64,000 nucleotides of DNA, taken from assembly GCA_035317605.1 (NCBI GenBank), contig DATHGT010000133.1, forward strand, positions 5,452-69,451, in the 5' to 3' direction. Each line of letters starts with the position of its first letter. Position 1 is the first letter of the stretch. The DNA comes from Candidatus Acidiferrum sp. (lineage in GTDB: Bacteria; Methylomirabilota; Methylomirabilia; Rokubacteriales; CSP1-6). A program made the position numbers and the translations under genes. Shown piece after piece: positions 53,809 to 60,211 of this stretch. Under the pieces are notes generated by a model. The model was given only the letters and a program-made list of their open reading frames with translations, was not told the DNA's origin and ran no database searches.

Positions 53809-54794
53809 CGCGCGCCCAGCTCCAGGACGGCCTCGGCCACACGGTGCGCCCCCCCGCCATCGACGAGGCTTCGGCCACGCCGACTCATCGCCTCCCGAAG
53901 GGCCGCGTCCGCGGCCAGACCGCGCAAGGCTTCGCCCACTCGTCGGCCGACGCCCTCGTCGTCGACGTCCCCCGCAAAGCGGAAGACGCCTTCCGCATCC
54001 CACGAGCGCGACTGCGGCGTCTGGTTGGGAGCCACGGCCACCAGGACCGCCGGTACGCCCATGGCGGCGAGTTCGTACGTCACTTGACCGCCTGCGCTCA
54101 GGGCCAGGTCCGCCGTCACCATCAGGTCCGCGAGGGACTTGGGATGGTGATGCACGGTCACGAGCTCCTCGGGAACACCGAGAGGCCCGCTGGCCAGAGG
54201 ACCCACCACCGCATCGATCGTCACCGCGGGCAACGCGGCGCGAACCCAGCTCAGGAACCGGCTCATCGAAGCCTTCGGATCCGCTCCTCCGACCGTCACC
54301 AGCACTCGGAGCACCGGGTGGGAGGCGGCAGGCCTTCCGTCCCGCGCGAACTCCGGACGGAGCAGCGCGTAGCGCGGCCCCAGGAGCAGCCGCGCGTCGG
54401 CCGACCCGCGGTAGGCGGAGACGCCCACGCCGGGTGCCGTGTTGACGACGACGTCGGCGGGGATCTCGCGATCGGCCAGGTCGTCGATCACGACCAGCGG
54501 GCCCGCTTGCCGCAAGCGCGCCAGGTCCTCCCTCCGGAGCTCGTAGGAGTCGGCCACGAACACCCGCGGCGCCGCTCGGTCGACTTCATCGAGCCACGAC
54601 GTGACGCCGCCTCCGTCGATCGCCTGAACCCTGAAGCCGGCGTCGGCAATGAGCGCGGCCACGGTCGGTTCCGGATTAACGACGAAGCGCGACGCCGCTC
54701 CCAGGTTGCGGAGCGTTTCCGCGAGGGTCAGGCAACGACGGACGTGTCCGAAGCCCTCCACACGACCTCCGCGCGTGACGAAGACGACGGTCAC
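53805..54794 (-). CDS. pseG: UDP-2,4-diacetamido-2,4,6-trideoxy-hexose hydrolase PseG-like (MurG-like GT-B fold)
   Basis: GTG start 54794..54792 in a GTGA overlap. VVFVTRGGRVEGFGHVRRCLTLAETL matches the PseG/SpsG N-terminal GxGHxxR signature. TVGGADPKA and the C-terminal sugar-nucleotide block are present. The upstream 374 codons of the track ORF are spurious. Confidence 0.7.
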   Translation of the reverse strand: MTVVFVTRGGRVEGFGHVRRCLTLAETLRNLGAASRFVVNPEPTVAALIADAGFRVQAIDGGGVTSWLDEVDRAAPRVFVADSYELRREDLARLRQAGPLVVIDDLADREIPADVVVNTAPGVGVSAYRGSADARLLLGPRYALLRPEFARDGRPAASHPVLRVLVTVGGADPKASMSRFLSWVRAALPAVTIDAVVGPLASGPLGVPEELVTVHHHPKSLADLMVTADLALSAGGQVTYELAAMGVPAVLVAVAPNQTPQSRSWDAEGVFRFAGDVDDEGVGRRVGEALRGLAADAALREAMSRRGRSLVDGGGAHRVAEAVLELGAR

Positions 54795-55948
54795 GCGCTT
54801 CGCGCTTCCAGGACCCGTCGAACGGTGTCCACCACGCGGTCGACGTCGGCATCGTTCAACTCGGGAAACATCGGGAGCGAGAGGATGCTCGCGTACGCGG
54901 CCTCCGCGACCGGGCATTGCCCCGGGGACGTCCCGAAGCGCTTCTGATAGAAGGGATGCAGGTGCACGGGAATGTAGTGGACGTTGACGCCGAGGCCCTC
55001 CGCCCGCAAGGCCGCGAACACGTCCGCCCGATCGGTACGCAGTCGCTGCAGACGGAGGCGCACGACGTAAAGGTGGTAGGCATGCCCAGCCGCGGGGCGG
55101 ACGGCGAGGGGGGCCAGCCAGGGCATCCCTTGGAAGGCCGCGTCGTACCGGCGGGCCAGCTGCCGCCGGCGCGCGACCCAACCCTCCAGCTTGCGGAGCT
55201 GGCTGATCCCCAGGGCGCACTGCAGGTCGGTCAAGCGGTAGTTGAATCCCAGGTCCACCATCTCGTAGAACCAGGATCCCGCGGCCTCCCGCTGTCGATG
55301 ATCGCTGGTGATGCCGTGATTGCGGAAGATCCGCATCCGCCGCGCCCGCTCCGCGTCGTTGGTGGTGATCATCCCGCCTTCGCCGGTCGTGATGTGCTTG
55401 ACGGGATGAAAGCTGAAGGTCGACAGGTCGGCGAGCGTCCCCACGGGGACGCCCGACAGGTCCCCGCCGAGCGCGTGGCAGGCGTCGGCGATCAGCACGA
55501 GCCCGTGCGCGACGGCCAACTCCCGGAGCTTCACGTAGTCGCAGGGCTGACCGGCGTAGTCCACCGCCACGATGGCTTTCGTCCGTGCCGAGAGCCGCGA
55601 CTCCACCGAGGCGGGATCCACCAGCAAGGTGTCCGGGTCGACGTCGGCGAACACCGGCGTGCCGCCCTCGTAGACGACGCAGTTCGCGCTCGCCGCGAAG
55701 GTGAGCGCGGGCACGATCACCTCGTCGCCTGCCCCGATCCCGATCGCATGGACGGCCGCGTGCAGTGCCGCGGTCCCGTTGCTGACCGCCACCGCCTCCG
55801 TCGCTCCCACGAAATCCGCGAAGGCCCGCTCGAACTGTCCCACCAGCGGCCCCGTGGTCAGGTATTCGGAGCGCAGAACGCGGACGACGGCCTCGATGTC
55901 GTCGTCGCCGAGCCACTGCCTGCCGTACGGGAGGTGCCGGTTGGTCAC
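54791..55948 (-). CDS. pseC: DegT/DnrJ/EryC1/StrS-family PLP aminotransferase (PseC-like UDP-4-keto-6-deoxy-HexNAc transaminase)
   Basis: GTG start 55948..55946 in a GTGA overlap. The N-terminus LPYGRQWLGDDDIEAV is PseC-like. The PLP-Lys region is FSFHPVKHITTGEGG. Confidence 0.85.
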   Translation of the reverse strand: MTNRHLPYGRQWLGDDDIEAVVRVLRSEYLTTGPLVGQFERAFADFVGATEAVAVSNGTAALHAAVHAIGIGAGDEVIVPALTFAASANCVVYEGGTPVFADVDPDTLLVDPASVESRLSARTKAIVAVDYAGQPCDYVKLRELAVAHGLVLIADACHALGGDLSGVPVGTLADLSTFSFHPVKHITTGEGGMITTNDAERARRMRIFRNHGITSDHRQREAAGSWFYEMVDLGFNYRLTDLQCALGISQLRKLEGWVARRRQLARRYDAAFQGMPWLAPLAVRPAAGHAYHLYVVRLRLQRLRTDRADVFAALRAEGLGVNVHYIPVHLHPFYQKRFGTSPGQCPVAEAAYASILSLPMFPELNDADVDRVVDTVRRVLEARSA

Positions 55949-56949
55949 GGATCTCGAGAGAGTGGACTCGCGTGGAGCTTGGAGACCATCTCGGCGAGCT
56001 CCTCCCGCGAGAGCCAGCGATCGTTCAGATCCGAGGAATAGCGGAAGCCTTCCGGGCACGGTTTCGCGTGTTCGTAGTGGTTCGAGTCGAACCAGTCGAA
56101 CTCGGGCCGGATCACGAACCGGTCCGGGAGTTCGGCCGTGTGATGCGCGTCGTCCTCGGGAACCATGACCTCGTGGAGCTTCTCGCCGGGTCGAATACCG
56201 ATGACTTCCGTGCGGCACTCCGGCGCCAGGGCCGCCGCCAGATCCATGATGTTCATCGACGGGATCTTGGGCACGAAGATCTCACCGCCGGTCATCCGAT
56301 CGAGGCAGTCGATCACGAACTCAACGCCCTGCGGCAGGGTCAGCCAGAATCTCGTCATGCGGGGGTCGGTGATCGGAAGGACACCCGTCTTTCGACGCCC
56401 CAGGAAAAACGGGATGACGCTGCCCCGGCTGCCCACCACGTTTCCGTACCGCACCACGGAGAAGCGCGTGTTTCGGTGTCCCGCGTAGACGTTCCCGGCC
56501 ACGAACAGCTTGTCGGAGCAGAGCTTGGTCGCCCCGTAGAGATTGATGGGGTTGGCGGCCTTGTCCGTGGAGAGGGCGACCACGCGCTCCACGCCCATGT
56601 CAATCGCCTCGTTGATGACGTTTTCCGCGCCGACGACGTTGGTCTTGACGGCCTCGAACGGGTTGTATTCGGCCGCGGGGACCTGCTTGAGGGCGGCCGT
56701 GTGGATGACGACGTCGACGCCCTGAAAGGCTCGGTGGAGGCGATCACGATCGCGGACGTCTCCGATGAAGTACCGCAGCGCGGGAAACCGACTCTCCGGG
56801 AACTCCTGCCTCATCTCGAATTGCTTGAGCTCGTCCCGGCTGAAGACGATGACTTTCCGGGGCTGATAGCGGGTCAGGACCGTCCGGACGAAGGAACGCC
56901 CGAATGAACCCGTCCCCCCCGTGATCAACACGACCTTGTCGTCGATCAT
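55945..56949 (-). CDS. pseB: UDP-N-acetylglucosamine 4,6-dehydratase (inverting), PseB/FlaA1-like (Polysacc_synt_2)
   Basis: 334 aa. KVVLITGGTGSFG, the catalytic YGATKLCSDKLF and the C-terminal extension are typical of PseB/CapD short forms. It is the first gene of the long minus-strand array. Confidence 0.85.
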   Translation of the reverse strand: MIDDKVVLITGGTGSFGRSFVRTVLTRYQPRKVIVFSRDELKQFEMRQEFPESRFPALRYFIGDVRDRDRLHRAFQGVDVVIHTAALKQVPAAEYNPFEAVKTNVVGAENVINEAIDMGVERVVALSTDKAANPINLYGATKLCSDKLFVAGNVYAGHRNTRFSVVRYGNVVGSRGSVIPFFLGRRKTGVLPITDPRMTRFWLTLPQGVEFVIDCLDRMTGGEIFVPKIPSMNIMDLAAALAPECRTEVIGIRPGEKLHEVMVPEDDAHHTAELPDRFVIRPEFDWFDSNHYEHAKPCPEGFRYSSDLNDRWLSREELAEMVSKLHASPLSRDP

Positions 56950-56986
56950 CGGATCATTCTTTCCGCGCGCCCGTCGGAGTCCGCTT

Positions 56987-57007
56987 CGTGTTCAAAATGT
57001 GAACAGG
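56987..57007. promoter_or_regulatory. palindromic candidate operator CGTGTTCA-aaatg-TGAACA upstream of the pseB array
   Basis: Perfect 6-bp arms TGTTCA/TGAACA with a 5-nt spacer at 56989..57005, about 40 bp upstream of the pseB start. The same core recurs at 58631..58646. Confidence 0.35.
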
Positions 57008-57158
57008 ATTCTATCGCCCCGGCCGCCGCGCCGTCAAGCGCCCCATCGGCGAATGGGCCGGTCGCTTGACAGGTCGCGAGAAGAACCCGAAGATCCGGCC
57101 TCGTGCGGAACGGGCAGATTCGAGAATCACCGCCGACGCGGACGCTCCCGCCACCGTC

Positions 57159-57947
57159 ATGAGCGCCCCCCGAACGTCTCAGGAGCGGCTGGACGACTTC
57201 AGCGCCGGGGCCCTGGCCGATCGGCACGACCGCCAGCAGTCGCTCCTGGAGAACACCGGCGCGCTCGGGTCGCCGCCTTACCGCGTGCTCGATCTGGGAA
57301 GTGGAAGCGGCGTCACCGCCGTGTGGGCGGCGCGCCGAGGCTGGCCGGTCACAGCCGTGGATGTCGACGGCAAGCACATGGCGGTGCTGGAACGCCACCT
57401 CGCGGTCGAGGAGCCGGGCCTGCCCATCGAGCGGGTGGTCTCCGACGCGGTCACCTGCGAAGGCGTGCCCGACGCCGCCTACGACATCGCGTATCTCAAG
57501 GATCTGCTGGAGCACGTCGATGATTTCCGTACCTGCCTCGCCACGGCGTACCGGAAGCTCAAGCCGGGGGGGCTGTTGTACGTGGCCACCACCAACGTCG
57601 TGTGTCCGCTCCAGTTGGAATATCACGGCGTGGGGCCGTACTCGTGGTATCCGCGCTGGCTCAAGGACAGGATCCGCCTATGGGCGCTCGCCGGCCATCC
57701 CCGCGTCGTCGCCCACAGCGCCCGGCCGGCGCTCCACTGGTTCAGCCGGCGCTCGCTGAGCCGCGCCATGCGCGAGGTCGGATTCACGCGCACCTGGGAC
57801 CTCTACGACCTCGTGCGCTCGCCGGGAGACCTCACGCGCCGCACCCGTCTCATCTACCCGTTGATCCGTCACGCGCGCCGCGTCCCGCTCGGGCCGGACC
57901 TGGTCGACCTCATGGTGGTCGGGCTCACCATGGTGGCACAGGCCTAG
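57159..57947 (+). CDS. class I SAM-dependent methyltransferase
   Basis: Track ORF 57066..57947. The likely start is ATG 57159 (MSAPRTSQERL...). Motif I is VLDLGSGSGVTAVWAA and the acidic motif is YDIAYLKDLLEHV. Confidence 0.7.
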   Translation: MSAPRTSQERLDDFSAGALADRHDRQQSLLENTGALGSPPYRVLDLGSGSGVTAVWAARRGWPVTAVDVDGKHMAVLERHLAVEEPGLPIERVVSDAVTCEGVPDAAYDIAYLKDLLEHVDDFRTCLATAYRKLKPGGLLYVATTNVVCPLQLEYHGVGPYSWYPRWLKDRIRLWALAGHPRVVAHSARPALHWFSRRSLSRAMREVGFTRTWDLYDLVRSPGDLTRRTRLIYPLIRHARRVPLGPDLVDLMVVGLTMVAQA

Positions 57948-57997
57948 GTTCGGATCTGCCCTGAGGGGGGCCGGCAGGCCGGCGACCGCGCCGTCAT

Positions 57998-58588
57998 CTA
58001 TGCCGGCCGTTCACCGAGCACGATCAGTTTCGCCCTGGGGAGCCCCAGCCGCGTCACCTGCTCGACCAGGCGGTCGTTGGCGTTGAACGTCACCACCACG
58101 ACCCGATCGACCTCGGCGCTCGCGAGCTCACGGAGCGGACGGACGGGGAGATCGAGAAACGTCGACGCCTTGGTGTCGGCGAACACGGCGATCGCGTCCA
58201 GCCCGAGCTCCTTGAGCGTGAGGTAGGTGAGCTCCGCGGCCTCCCCGGTCCCGCACAGCGCCACCCGCTTCGGGCCCGCGCTGGCGATGGGCTGCAGGGC
58301 CTCGCGGAGCCGCTGACGTGTCTCGCGGTACAGCACGAGTGAGAAGCTCATGTACTCGTAGGTGAGGCGCGTCTTCTGGGCGATGCCGCGGGGCGTGAGG
58401 AGGTATTTCAAGCGGTTCGTGGGGATGGTGGTGATCTTGACGTAGCCCTTGCGGGTGAGCCGCTTGAGGTAGAGATTCGTCAGGCCGAGGGCGACCCCGA
58501 GGCTCTCGGACAGGCCGCGCTGGGTGACGTCGTCGCGGGCGGCGATCTCGGTGAGGATCTTGAGATCGCGCTGGGCCGCTTGCCTCAC
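57998..58588 (-). CDS. transcriptional regulator: N-terminal winged helix-turn-helix plus C-terminal Rossmann-like (CoA-binding/Rex-like) domain
   Basis: 196 aa. The N-terminus LKILTEIAARDDVTQRGLSESLGVALGLTNLYLKRLTRKGYVKI is AsnC/MarR-like wHTH. The C-terminus RVALCGTGEAAELTYLTLKELGLDAIAVFADT...VDRVVVVTF has a GxGxxA nucleotide-binding pattern. It resembles the C-terminal domain of the WecA fusion at 19829..21616. Confidence 0.55.
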   Translation of the reverse strand: MRQAAQRDLKILTEIAARDDVTQRGLSESLGVALGLTNLYLKRLTRKGYVKITTIPTNRLKYLLTPRGIAQKTRLTYEYMSFSLVLYRETRQRLREALQPIASAGPKRVALCGTGEAAELTYLTLKELGLDAIAVFADTKASTFLDLPVRPLRELASAEVDRVVVVTFNANDRLVEQVTRLGLPRAKLIVLGERPA

Positions 58589-58627
58589 GCGCCGGTCCCG
58601 TCGCCGCCCGCTTGGAGCCCGCTCATC

Positions 58628-58648
58628 GCGTGTTCATGTTTTGAACGG
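58628..58648. promoter_or_regulatory. second copy of the palindromic operator GCGTGTTCA-tgttt-TGAACGG, about 45 bp upstream of the regulator gene
   Basis: TGTTCA-N5-TGAAC at 58631..58646. It shares the CGTGTTCA...TGAAC core with the site at 56989..57005. Confidence 0.35.
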
Positions 58649-58723
58649 CGCCAGCCTAACAAGAGTTCCGGCGCCCGTCAACGACGGCGGGAGGCCGGCC
58701 GTGGAGCCGTCGCCGGCGACCCG

Positions 58724-60211
58724 TCACAGGGCCTGACGGGTCGCCTCCTCGGAGACCTGCCGGGCCGTTCGCGCCTCGTCGCGGGCCTTCTTGAAGAGAT
58801 GCTCGAAGCTCATCAAGGCGATGGCCAGGAACAGGCTCACCACAATGATCCCGGCCAGGATGGTGCTCCAGGCGTAGCCCTCTCGCCTGATCACGGGCGG
58901 CTGGGCGATGGCGACCTGGCTGCTCACCGTGAACGTGAGGTAGTCGTCGAGGAGCTTGGAGTAGTTCTGAATGATCTCCCGCAGCTCGGTCGAGACGGTC
59001 CCCAGGATGTCCTTGTAGCCGGAGGGCAGCTGGCCGATGCCGATGTCGCTGGCCTTGGGCAGCCAGGCGAGCTGATTCTGCAGGCGGGCTTTCTCGGCCT
59101 CCAGCGTTTGCCTGTCCTCCTGGAGCTTCGAGATCCGGGACACCACGGGCCCTTCGTAGTCGCTCTTGAGCAGCTTCTCGAGCGCGGTGACGTCGAGGAT
59201 CGAGGTGCCGCGTTCATTGCTGAGCTGGCCGGCCATCAGCGACTTGGGCCGGTCGATCAACGCCAGCAGCCGCCCCTGCTCCTCGGCTTCCCGCGTCTTC
59301 TGATGGATCCGGATGTCGACTTCGGCGATGCGGTGCTGAACCCGCTGCTGGATGAGGTCGCGGTTCTTGACCAATCGGCCGTGGTAGGTCACGGCCTCCA
59401 GGGCTTGCAGTCGCGTGGCGTACCAGGTCTCGAGATCGTTGACGAGGGTCCGGAAGGCGACCTGATACTTGGGATAGTTGTTCTGCAGCGTTTCCAGGAC
59501 GAGGCCGTTCAGCTCCGAGCTGAGCGTCGAGTAGGTCGTCACGAACCGCATCGGAAGGTCCCAGAAGTCGTAGGTCGCGATGAGTTTCTCGTAGGCGATG
59601 TCGTTCAGCGTGACCAGCGTCGATTTCTGCGCGTATTTGAGCTGTTCCTGGTACTTGAGCTGTTCCCGGTAGTGGCGGACCAGCGCGTCGAAGAACCGGA
59701 TCCGCTGCGCGTCGCTGATACCGGGGATCTCGGCGGCGATCCTGAACTCGCTGGGGAAATACTCGTCCCGTCTCGCGCCTTCCTTCTCCTGCCGTCTCCA
59801 GCGCCCCTGAATATCCCCGGGAATGATCGGGGTGACGAAGATGTGCGAAGCCAGATTCGTCAGGTTGCGACCGAACTGCGGGATGCCCGCTTCCGCGAGC
59901 GCGCTCGTCAGGACGGCGGGACTACGAAAGTCCTCGACGCTGAATTTTCGTCCGGTGGGATATTCGTTGCGCTCGATCCCCCGGAAGCTCAGCCGCAGCG
60001 TGCCCTCGACGAGCTTGGGAGCGGACAGGTACGCGTTGAGGAAGATGAGCACCCCGACCCCGAGAAACGCGATGAAGCGCACCGCGAGGGCGATGCGCCG
60101 GGCGTACAGGAATTTGATCGCGTCCACGAACCCGGGATGGAGCTCCTCTTCGTCGGCATCACGACCCACCTTTGGCGCCTTGGAAGACGCCGCCGCCGCT
60201 GGTTCGGTCAT
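58724..60211 (-). CDS. polysaccharide co-polymerase (Wzz/PCP-family chain-length determinant), no kinase domain
   Basis: 495 aa. The N-terminal Wzz motif and TM are FVDAIKFLYARRIALAVRFIAFLGVGVLIFL. It has a long periplasmic helical/coiled-coil region and a C-terminal TM (WSTILAGIIVVSLFLAIALMSF). GC is lower (about 60%). Confidence 0.7.
   Translation of the reverse strand: MTEPAAAASSKAPKVGRDADEEELHPGFVDAIKFLYARRIALAVRFIAFLGVGVLIFLNAYLSAPKLVEGTLRLSFRGIERNEYPTGRKFSVEDFRSPAVLTSALAEAGIPQFGRNLTNLASHIFVTPIIPGDIQGRWRRQEKEGARRDEYFPSEFRIAAEIPGISDAQRIRFFDALVRHYREQLKYQEQLKYAQKSTLVTLNDIAYEKLIATYDFWDLPMRFVTTYSTLSSELNGLVLETLQNNYPKYQVAFRTLVNDLETWYATRLQALEAVTYHGRLVKNRDLIQQRVQHRIAEVDIRIHQKTREAEEQGRLLALIDRPKSLMAGQLSNERGTSILDVTALEKLLKSDYEGPVVSRISKLQEDRQTLEAEKARLQNQLAWLPKASDIGIGQLPSGYKDILGTVSTELREIIQNYSKLLDDYLTFTVSSQVAIAQPPVIRREGYAWSTILAGIIVVSLFLAIALMSFEHLFKKARDEARTARQVSEEATRQAL

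Follow-up and report, generated by a model that had tools for sequence, protein, structure and literature searches.

A conserved palindrome as the predicted operator of a glycan-locus regulator family, with a second copy before pseB in a Methylomirabilota genome

Regulators encoded in polysaccharide and glycan loci have been described from several protein families, and we compare them here with a 196-aa regulator encoded beside a pseudaminic-acid (pse) locus in 64,000 nucleotides of contig DATHGT010000133.1 from Candidatus Acidiferrum sp. (this whole stretch is the window in what follows), together with two palindromic dyads, one lying before its gene and the other before pseB. One of these families is TIGR04176, the MarR family EPS-associated regulator, whose model of 105 positions aligns from 4 to 97 with residues 6-95 of our regulator, that is, with the winged helix-turn-helix (wHTH) and the next helix (E = 1.9e-16). 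The regulator obtains 60 bits against a curated cutoff of 88 and hence is not a member. The TIGR04176 proteins have about 105 aa and a single domain, whereas in the family of our regulator a Rossmann-like domain of about 95 aa follows. Exopolysaccharide or glycan loci are the setting of both, and no operator for TIGR04176 is described in the literature that we searched.

The DNA-binding half of the regulator is MarR-like in fold, but the protein remains below the gathering cutoffs of both MarR models (PF01047, 19.4 against 24.6; PF12802, 22.2 against 27). Compared with the repressors MarR, MepR, CouR and FabT, its wHTH is located at the extreme N-terminus, without the MarR N-terminal dimerisation helix, and its separate alpha/beta domain is absent from MarR proteins, including TcaR (ica), SlyA (kps) and KvrA/B (Klebsiella capsule). 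Rex shares with the regulator the two-domain architecture of a wHTH and a Rossmann-like domain; however, the regulator has no match to PF06971 or PF02629 (E ≤ 0.01), its family does not conserve the GxGxxG motif, and the genomic context of the family is glycan synthesis, whereas that of Rex is respiration and fermentation. The Rex operator, TTGTGAA-N4-TTCACAA, also differs from the dyad described here, with half-sites opposite in orientation and at another spacing. UpxY/UpxZ and RfaH resemble our family in that the regulatory genes stand at the head of each glycan locus, but they act on elongation or antitermination, whereas the regulator family would act via a promoter operator, and in the window no NusG paralog is found next to the regulator gene.

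The two dyads are likely to be operators of the regulator encoded beside them, which would act as a repressor of its own gene and of the operon led by pseB. The regulator belongs to a widespread uncharacterised family present in Rokubacteria/Methylomirabilota, Nitrospirota, Acidobacteriota, Binatia and other groups. The two predicted operators and the genes that they precede are:

56989..57005: predicted operator O1, TGTTCAaaatgTGAACA, a perfect 6+6 dyad, 39 nt 5' of the pseB ATG (56949)
58631..58647: predicted operator O2, TGTTCAtgtttTGAACg, a 5+5 dyad with the outer pair T..G and not T..A, 42 nt 5' of the regulator GTG (58588)
55945..56949, minus strand: pseB, UDP-GlcNAc 4,6-dehydratase (inverting); TIGR03589 522.5 bits against a cutoff of 407.75, PF02719 E = 6e-101
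57998..58588, minus strand: regulator gene, 196 aa

The window reads CGTGTTCAaaatgTGAACA at 56987-57005 and GCGTGTTCAtgtttTGAACGG at 58628-58648. Exact matches of TGTTCA-N5-TGAAC occur twice in the 64 kb (56989-57004 and 58631-58646), for a shuffle expectation of 0.17 per window, and none of 100 dinucleotide shuffles reached the observed count. Because the G+C content of the window is 68%, an AT-rich 17-mer dyad is rare in it. An earlier note on this DNA had claimed two copies of the dyad at promoter positions, some 40 and 45 bp before the two start codons, and these counts and the measured distances confirm it; its description of the regulator gene as divergently placed was wrong, as this gene and pseB are both on the minus strand with a plus-strand methyltransferase gene between them.

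A position weight matrix of 21 nt, trained solely on 73 distinct sites from other genomes, gave 26.8 bits at 56987-57007 (O1) and 24.3 bits at 58629-58649 (O2). The third-best position in the whole window reached 6.5 bits and the best of 30 shuffles 11.9 bits, and no further site of at least 10 bits besides O1 and O2 was found in the 64 kb. Judged by this foreign matrix, O1 represents the family operator no less well than the autoregulatory O2.

The association of the dyad with the regulator was examined in other species. Homologs of the regulator form about 2,766 sequence clusters, the named ones being Candidatus Rokubacteria proteins annotated merely as wHTH or MarR-family. A scan of 185,579 species genomes (one genome per species) yielded 545 stretches with relatives, and the best 80 loci, chosen by protein similarity alone, were fetched for comparison (1.14 Mb in total; single loci are cited below by L numbers). 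Among their sources are Rokuibacteriota/Methylomirabilota, Nitrospirota (with the cultured Nitrospira moscoviensis), Acidobacteriota, Binatia and Nitrospinota, and 78 of the loci contain evaluable upstream DNA. In N. moscoviensis NSP M-1 (NZ_CP011801.1) the ortholog spans about 3313533-3314102 and the site about 3314140-3314154. An exact GTTCA-N5-TGAAC lies within 260 bp 5' of the regulator gene in 75 of these 78 loci, and 80 of the 84 exact matches in the 1.14 Mb fall within those 21 kb of upstream DNA, while shuffled loci contain 0-1 matches in total. The recurrence of the site before the regulator gene is the comparative-genomics signature of an autoregulatory operator, with the family consensus T-GTTCA-(AT-rich N5)-TGAAC-R.

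Some loci depart from the simple arrangement. In L032 the site heads a co-directional operon in which a NusG-like gene comes before the regulator gene; L041 has two sites ahead of a co-directional run of six genes, the last of which is the regulator gene; and in L012 the site is about 250 bp 5', at the head of a co-directional operon containing the regulator gene. In five loci, two dyads abutting head to tail in a 15-nt register (GTTCA-N5-TGAAC GTTCA-N5-TGAAC) stand 5' of the regulator gene, and they could allow the cooperative binding of two dimers:

L013:1228-1257, tandem dyad
L023:9950-9979, tandem dyad
L037:9945-9974, tandem dyad
L045:6406-6435, tandem dyad
L067:890-919, tandem dyad

Both dyads of the window lie next to promoter-like elements:

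57008..57037, minus strand: promoter-like element of pseB; TTGACG (57037-57032), 18-nt spacer, TAGAAT (57013-57008)
58653..58681, minus strand: promoter-like element of the regulator gene; TTGACG (58681-58676), 17-nt spacer, TAGGCT (58658-58653), read by eye

The order before pseB on the minus strand is TTGACG-N18-TAGAAT-cc-TGTTCAcatttTGAACA, with the -10 hexamer ending 2 nt before O1. This promoter agrees with the consensus at 10 of 12 positions and was the sole match of a consensus scan of 56800-58900 (shuffle mean 0.2). Before the regulator gene the order is TTGACG-N17-TAGGCT-ggcgc-CGTTCAaaacaTGAACA, and here the -10 ends 5 nt before O2. When the window was aligned with four relatives whose regulators are 70-90% identical, the only conserved blocks of the upstream DNA were CGTTGAC (-35), TAG(A/G)(A/C)T (-10) and the dyad CGTTCAAAACATGAAC, the rest having diverged; the -10 is TAGAAT in four of the five sequences, and four of its six bases are invariant. 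This five-way footprint, together with the tie of the dyad to the regulator family in 75 of the 78 loci, supports at sequence level the autoregulation that the earlier note had predicted.

The same geometry extends to the family. A match to TTGACA (at least five of six positions) ends 14-16 nt before GTTCA at 58 of 83 family sites, which places the dyad on the -10/start region, and 27-31 nt before GTTCA at 12 more, which places it after the -10, as in the window. By sequence prediction, the operators overlap the core promoter or the transcription start. Each window dyad starts 2-5 nt after the -10 hexamer and would therefore cover the start of transcription. Repression is predicted because both of these dyad positions are ones where a bound protein excludes RNA polymerase.

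The position of the dyad also bears on the possibility that the protein and its sites are as described but that the regulator activates, or both activates and represses. SlyA/RovA and KvrA/KvrB are MarR-type regulators of polysaccharide loci that activate or anti-silence transcription; the usual position of an activator, however, is 5' of the -35 or overlapping it, and in essentially all the loci the dyad is 3' of the -35, either overlapping the -10/start or abutting the -10. We consider activation unlikely for this family.

It is very unlikely that the dyad works in RNA, as a short hairpin at the 5' end of the mRNA that affects stability or translation. The window dyads would lie at or near the transcript 5' ends and can be drawn as hairpins of 5-6 bp (-5.7 and -8.0 kcal/mol), and the start codon, which follows the dyad within 4-20 nt in many loci, is only 4-8 nt away in some. 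However, the arms are invariant across phyla without covariation, and the rare changes of TGAAC to CGAAC (L024, L050) break a pair and are uncompensated. The whole 5' untranslated regions are no more stable than their shuffles (z = -0.3 and -0.5), no relevant Rfam match was found in 56800-58800 at E ≤ 1, and the dyad overlaps the -10 in most loci, so it would be only partly transcribed. Furthermore, the gene that is inherited with the dyad encodes a predicted DNA-binding protein with an invariant recognition helix.

Slightly less probable still is the binding of the dyad by another, unlinked factor, such as a global regulator or a LexA-type repressor. LexA in several phyla uses GAAC/GTTC-type palindromes, and its known boxes in other phyla are similar to palindromes of this kind. 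Against this, the site co-occurs with the regulator gene in 75 of 78 species and hardly ever occurs in the other 1.1 Mb of flanking sequence, the neighbouring genes have glycan functions and not functions in DNA repair, and the N7 spacing from GTTC to GAAC differs from that of the known LexA boxes. To the chance meeting of two short AT-rich palindromes we give next to no weight, since, short as the motif is, 0.17 matches per window and 0-1 per 1.14 Mb are expected and 2 and 84 are observed, with an extreme positional bias.

Other identities of the element were tried and rejected. A LexA/SOS box was ruled out on genomic context. An intrinsic terminator of the upstream 495-aa gene is not predicted at O2, and the dyad has no T-run. 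A promoter for an extracytoplasmic-function sigma factor (GAAC ... CGT type) was rejected by inspection: both arms of the palindrome are conserved, a conserved sigma-70-like -35/-10 pair lies upstream, and the start codon is within 4-20 nt of the dyad in many loci.

We return to the reading of both dyads as predicted operators of the adjacent regulator, and first to the copy before pseB. Locus L087, whose regulator is 90% identical and which has the same 495-aa upstream open reading frame (ORF), contains both operators with their promoters. Its regulator gene is preceded by TTGACG-N18-TAGAAT-gtccg-CGTTCAAAACATGAAC, and its pseB by TTGACG-N18-TAGAAT-cc-TGTTCACATTTTGAACA, in a 107-nt gap (L087:9844-9951) directly before pseB. 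The methyltransferase gene at 57159-57947 of the window is absent there, and the pseB promoter starts at the regulator stop codon; in the window this gene is probably a local insertion, judging from the comparison of the two loci. Since L087 has both operators and lacks the methyltransferase, the two-operator design predates the insertion or is independent of it. The score obtained with the foreign matrix and the conservation with its promoter in L087 support, by sequence, the proposal of the earlier note that the pseB copy is a genuine second operator. Its further claim, control of the whole 35-kb array, is not supported, as it followed from co-directionality only and the window holds no other site of comparable score.

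Another second operator was found at L019:1813-1833 (27.5 bits), directly 5' of a Wzx flippase gene and 1.5 kb before the regulator's own operator. In 13 of the 80 loci a pseB ortholog (57-64% identity) is encoded 3' of the regulator gene and on its strand, as the very next gene in L023, L028, L059 and L060; these 13 loci have a single operator, before the regulator gene. A NeuB-like gene is found in 27 of the 80 loci; in 8 of these it and the regulator gene are transcribed away from each other, with the dyad in the gap of about 70 bp between them. Directly beside the regulator gene one often finds a gene for a NusG-like paralog (11 loci), for an MsbA-like ABC exporter (9), for an MptE/Maf-like protein (7) or for ABC-2/Wzm; glycosyltransferases, DegT aminotransferases, CMP-sugar synthases, PglD-like acetyltransferases, Wzx and SDR dehydratases also recur. 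Closer relatives, with regulators 70-78% identical, head loci for other sugars. The family consists of glycan-locus regulators that are often, but not always, attached to nonulosonic-acid pathways, and it is not pse-specific.

The AlphaFold2 model of the regulator, built from an alignment of 32 sequences (predicted local distance difference test, pLDDT, of 82), contains a three-helix wHTH with its wing (residues 1-65), a 38-residue helix (66-103), the probable dimerisation element, and a Rossmann-like alpha/beta domain (109-191). PF13412 is the sole wHTH model that the N-terminal region passes (38.1 bits against a cutoff of 21.9), and in a sequence search of the PDB only weak wHTH matches were obtained, the best being FabT (6jbx, E = 0.004). 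Residues T22, Q23, R24, A33-L36, N38-Y40, K42-L44, R46, G48 and K51 are almost invariant in the alignment of 32 homologs, and this invariant DNA-reading surface matches the invariant half-sites. In fold, the N-terminal half comes nearest to MarR, PadR and Sso10a, and not to Rex. The rows of the fold comparison, with their values, are:

2g6t, uncharacterised protein, 11.2
3nkl, N-terminal domain of a WbpM-type sugar dehydratase, 9.6
6mel, succinyl-CoA synthetase alpha chain, the matched region being the CoA-binding Rossmann fold, 9.5
5zz5, Rex, 9.3
7txp, VioB N-acetyltransferase, 8.4

A link of 2g6t to the Maf/MptE-like putative nonulosonic-acid transferases was not recovered when a neighbouring MptE-like protein was compared with the PDB by phmmer. 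The earlier suggestion of a wHTH joined to a Rossmann-like domain of Rex-like or CoA-binding-like type thus holds at the level of the predicted fold, but it does not extend to membership in the Rex family, whose Pfam models the protein does not match. A nucleotide, NAD or CoA-type ligand is unsupported. In the window the loop reads G113-T-G115-E-A-A; homologs have D, A, T or S in place of G115 but retain E116 and E119. A variable second glycine in GxGxxG, with invariant glutamates on either side of the loop, speaks against the canonical NAD(H) binding known from Rex. A profile of the C-terminal domain, compared with 1.84 billion proteins, gave 800 representatives, nearly all of 100-220 aa with the domain at about 98-195, and no enzyme fusions informative of a ligand were found among them. 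Since nearly all of these matches have the same architecture or are fragments, the domain is family-specific and its ligand is not inferable from fusions.

In the mechanism that we propose, a dimer of the regulator would contact TGTTCA with one recognition helix and TGAACA with the other; the centres of these half-sites, 11 bp apart, would be separated by one helical turn. The protein bound to an operator covering the transcription start would block RNA polymerase, so that the regulator would repress its own gene from O2 and, from O1, the pseudaminic-acid operon that pseB leads. Binding of a small molecule to the C-terminal domain presumably alters the binding of DNA. The computation shows that the sites exist and are non-random, that they are linked to the gene family across about 75 species and sit at promoters, and that the protein has the fold described; the binding of the protein to the sites, the sign of its action, a role for a ligand and the length of the pseB transcript are inferences. 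It is possible, at low confidence, that the Rossmann-like domain senses a nucleotide-activated sugar from the pathway, such as CMP-pseudaminic acid or one of the UDP-amino-sugar intermediates, and that the regulator would thus exert end-product feedback on nonulosonic-acid and other glycan operons.

Several points weigh against the proposed mechanism. The predicted sign, repression, is read from the position of the operators. The C-terminal domain may be an oligomerisation module and not a ligand sensor, given that GxGxxG is not conserved and that E116 and E119 are invariant. Most loci have the autoregulatory site only, and a predicted regulon that goes beyond the regulator's own transcription unit is seen only in the window, in L087, in L019 and weakly in L050. 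The scan for sites covered the 64-kb window and the 80 fetched loci. Finally, no description of the regulator family, of its operator or of a dedicated pse regulator was found in the literature, for which our coverage is incomplete; within what was searched, the statement of the earlier note that a dedicated pse regulator-operator pair is undescribed still stands.

Of the genes surrounding the two sites, pseB comes first in the pse operon and is the one on which O1 is predicted to act directly. The labels of the pse unit (49029..55948) are the Pfam labels of genes called on the identical contigs L081 and L082, with the coordinates mapped onto the window; the last two entries are further features of the region:

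54791-55948, minus strand: DegT-type aminotransferase, pseC-like
53805-54761, minus strand: 318-aa ORF at the pseG position, with no Pfam hit on record
52762-53808, minus strand: NeuB/pseI
52229-52762, minus strand: GNAT acetyltransferase
50589-52232, minus strand: cytidylyltransferase (CTP_transf_3, CMP-sugar synthase, pseF position) fused to an aldo-keto reductase, 547 aa
49801-50592, minus strand: SDR
49029-49772, minus strand: methyltransferase
48979..48999, minus strand: possible weak third site, cgTGTTCAaccgtCGAACcc
57159..57947, plus strand: SAM (S-adenosylmethionine)-dependent methyltransferase between the regulator gene and pseB, PF13489 E = 7e-20

The genes of the pse unit overlap or are separated by short gaps, and the DegT, GNAT, NeuB and CTP_transf_3 genes that adjoin pseB correspond, at the level of Pfam and without equivalog models, to the PseC, PseH, PseI and PseF functions. 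About 35 kb of minus-strand genes follow pseB, mostly with short gaps, and they are tightly packed over the first 8 kb or so only (pseB to 49029). The methyltransferase gene at 57159-57947 runs towards the regulator gene and away from pseB. The third site was the single one-mismatch match of the motif scan (48982-48997) and lies within the 68-nt gap between the methyltransferase gene at 49029-49772 and the next array gene (47758-48960). Its score of 6.5 bits is inside the shuffle range (maxima up to 11.9) and is not significant alone, and its place in the regulon is uncertain. The same T-to-C deviation is also seen in the genuine upstream site of L024.

On the other side of the regulator gene, the 495-aa ORF at 58724-60211 (minus strand), which is conserved in L087, has no Pfam or NCBIfam match. 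Hydrophobic segments near its two ends enclose a long stretch resembling a coiled coil, and it may be a divergent chain-length determinant of the Wzz/PCP type.

Other observations concern the comparison loci. In 11 of 66 called loci, most of them from Nitrospira, the gene next after that of the regulator encodes the NusG-like paralog (PF02357, about 170-195 aa). The combination is reminiscent of RfaH and UpxY, which stand at the heads of long polysaccharide operons, and it suggests two-layer control in which a promoter operator would be joined by antitermination. The recorded positions are:

L088:7323-7868: NusG-like paralog after the regulator gene
L010, L024, L034, L040, L042, L044, L051, L052, L054, L066, L078 and L079: likewise

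Two paralogous regulator loci with a common operator core are present in single genomes, namely L013 and L037 in the Binatia metagenome-assembled genome (MAG) SMAG_U11632, where both have an identical tandem dyad, and L043 and L064 in the Rokubacteria MAG AR15; judging from the shared core, such copies could cross-regulate several glycan loci. A near-identical NeuB-dyad-regulator junction, ttacaccaNNgtGTTCAACTTGTGAAC, links L011, L063, L069 and L070, binned as Nitrosotalea (an archaeon), Acidimicrobiaceae, Limnocylindria and Deferrimicrobiaceae, with the Rokubacteria/Methylomirabilia contigs L027, L048, L050 and L056, which suggests that the former are mis-binned or that the locus was transferred horizontally in recent times.

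In soil and groundwater phyla such as Rokubacteria, Nitrospirota and Acidobacteriota, next to nothing is known of how the transcription of surface-glycan and nonulosonic-acid loci is controlled. For these organisms, the analysis provides a defined regulator family, an operator consensus (T-GTTCA-N5-TGAAC-R), a promoter architecture and a culturable organism, Nitrospira moscoviensis, in which they can be studied. The operator motif is usable for annotating regulons in MAGs, and the compact regulator-operator pair could be a portable genetic switch. The system is conventional in being an autoregulated one-component wHTH regulator, and its unusual part is the family-specific Rossmann-like domain, so its value is incremental and leaves concepts unchanged unless the ligand is a nucleotide-sugar of the pathway. 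If that were true, the regulator would be the first dedicated transcriptional sensor to be described for bacterial nonulosonic-acid biosynthesis, conserved across several largely uncultured phyla.

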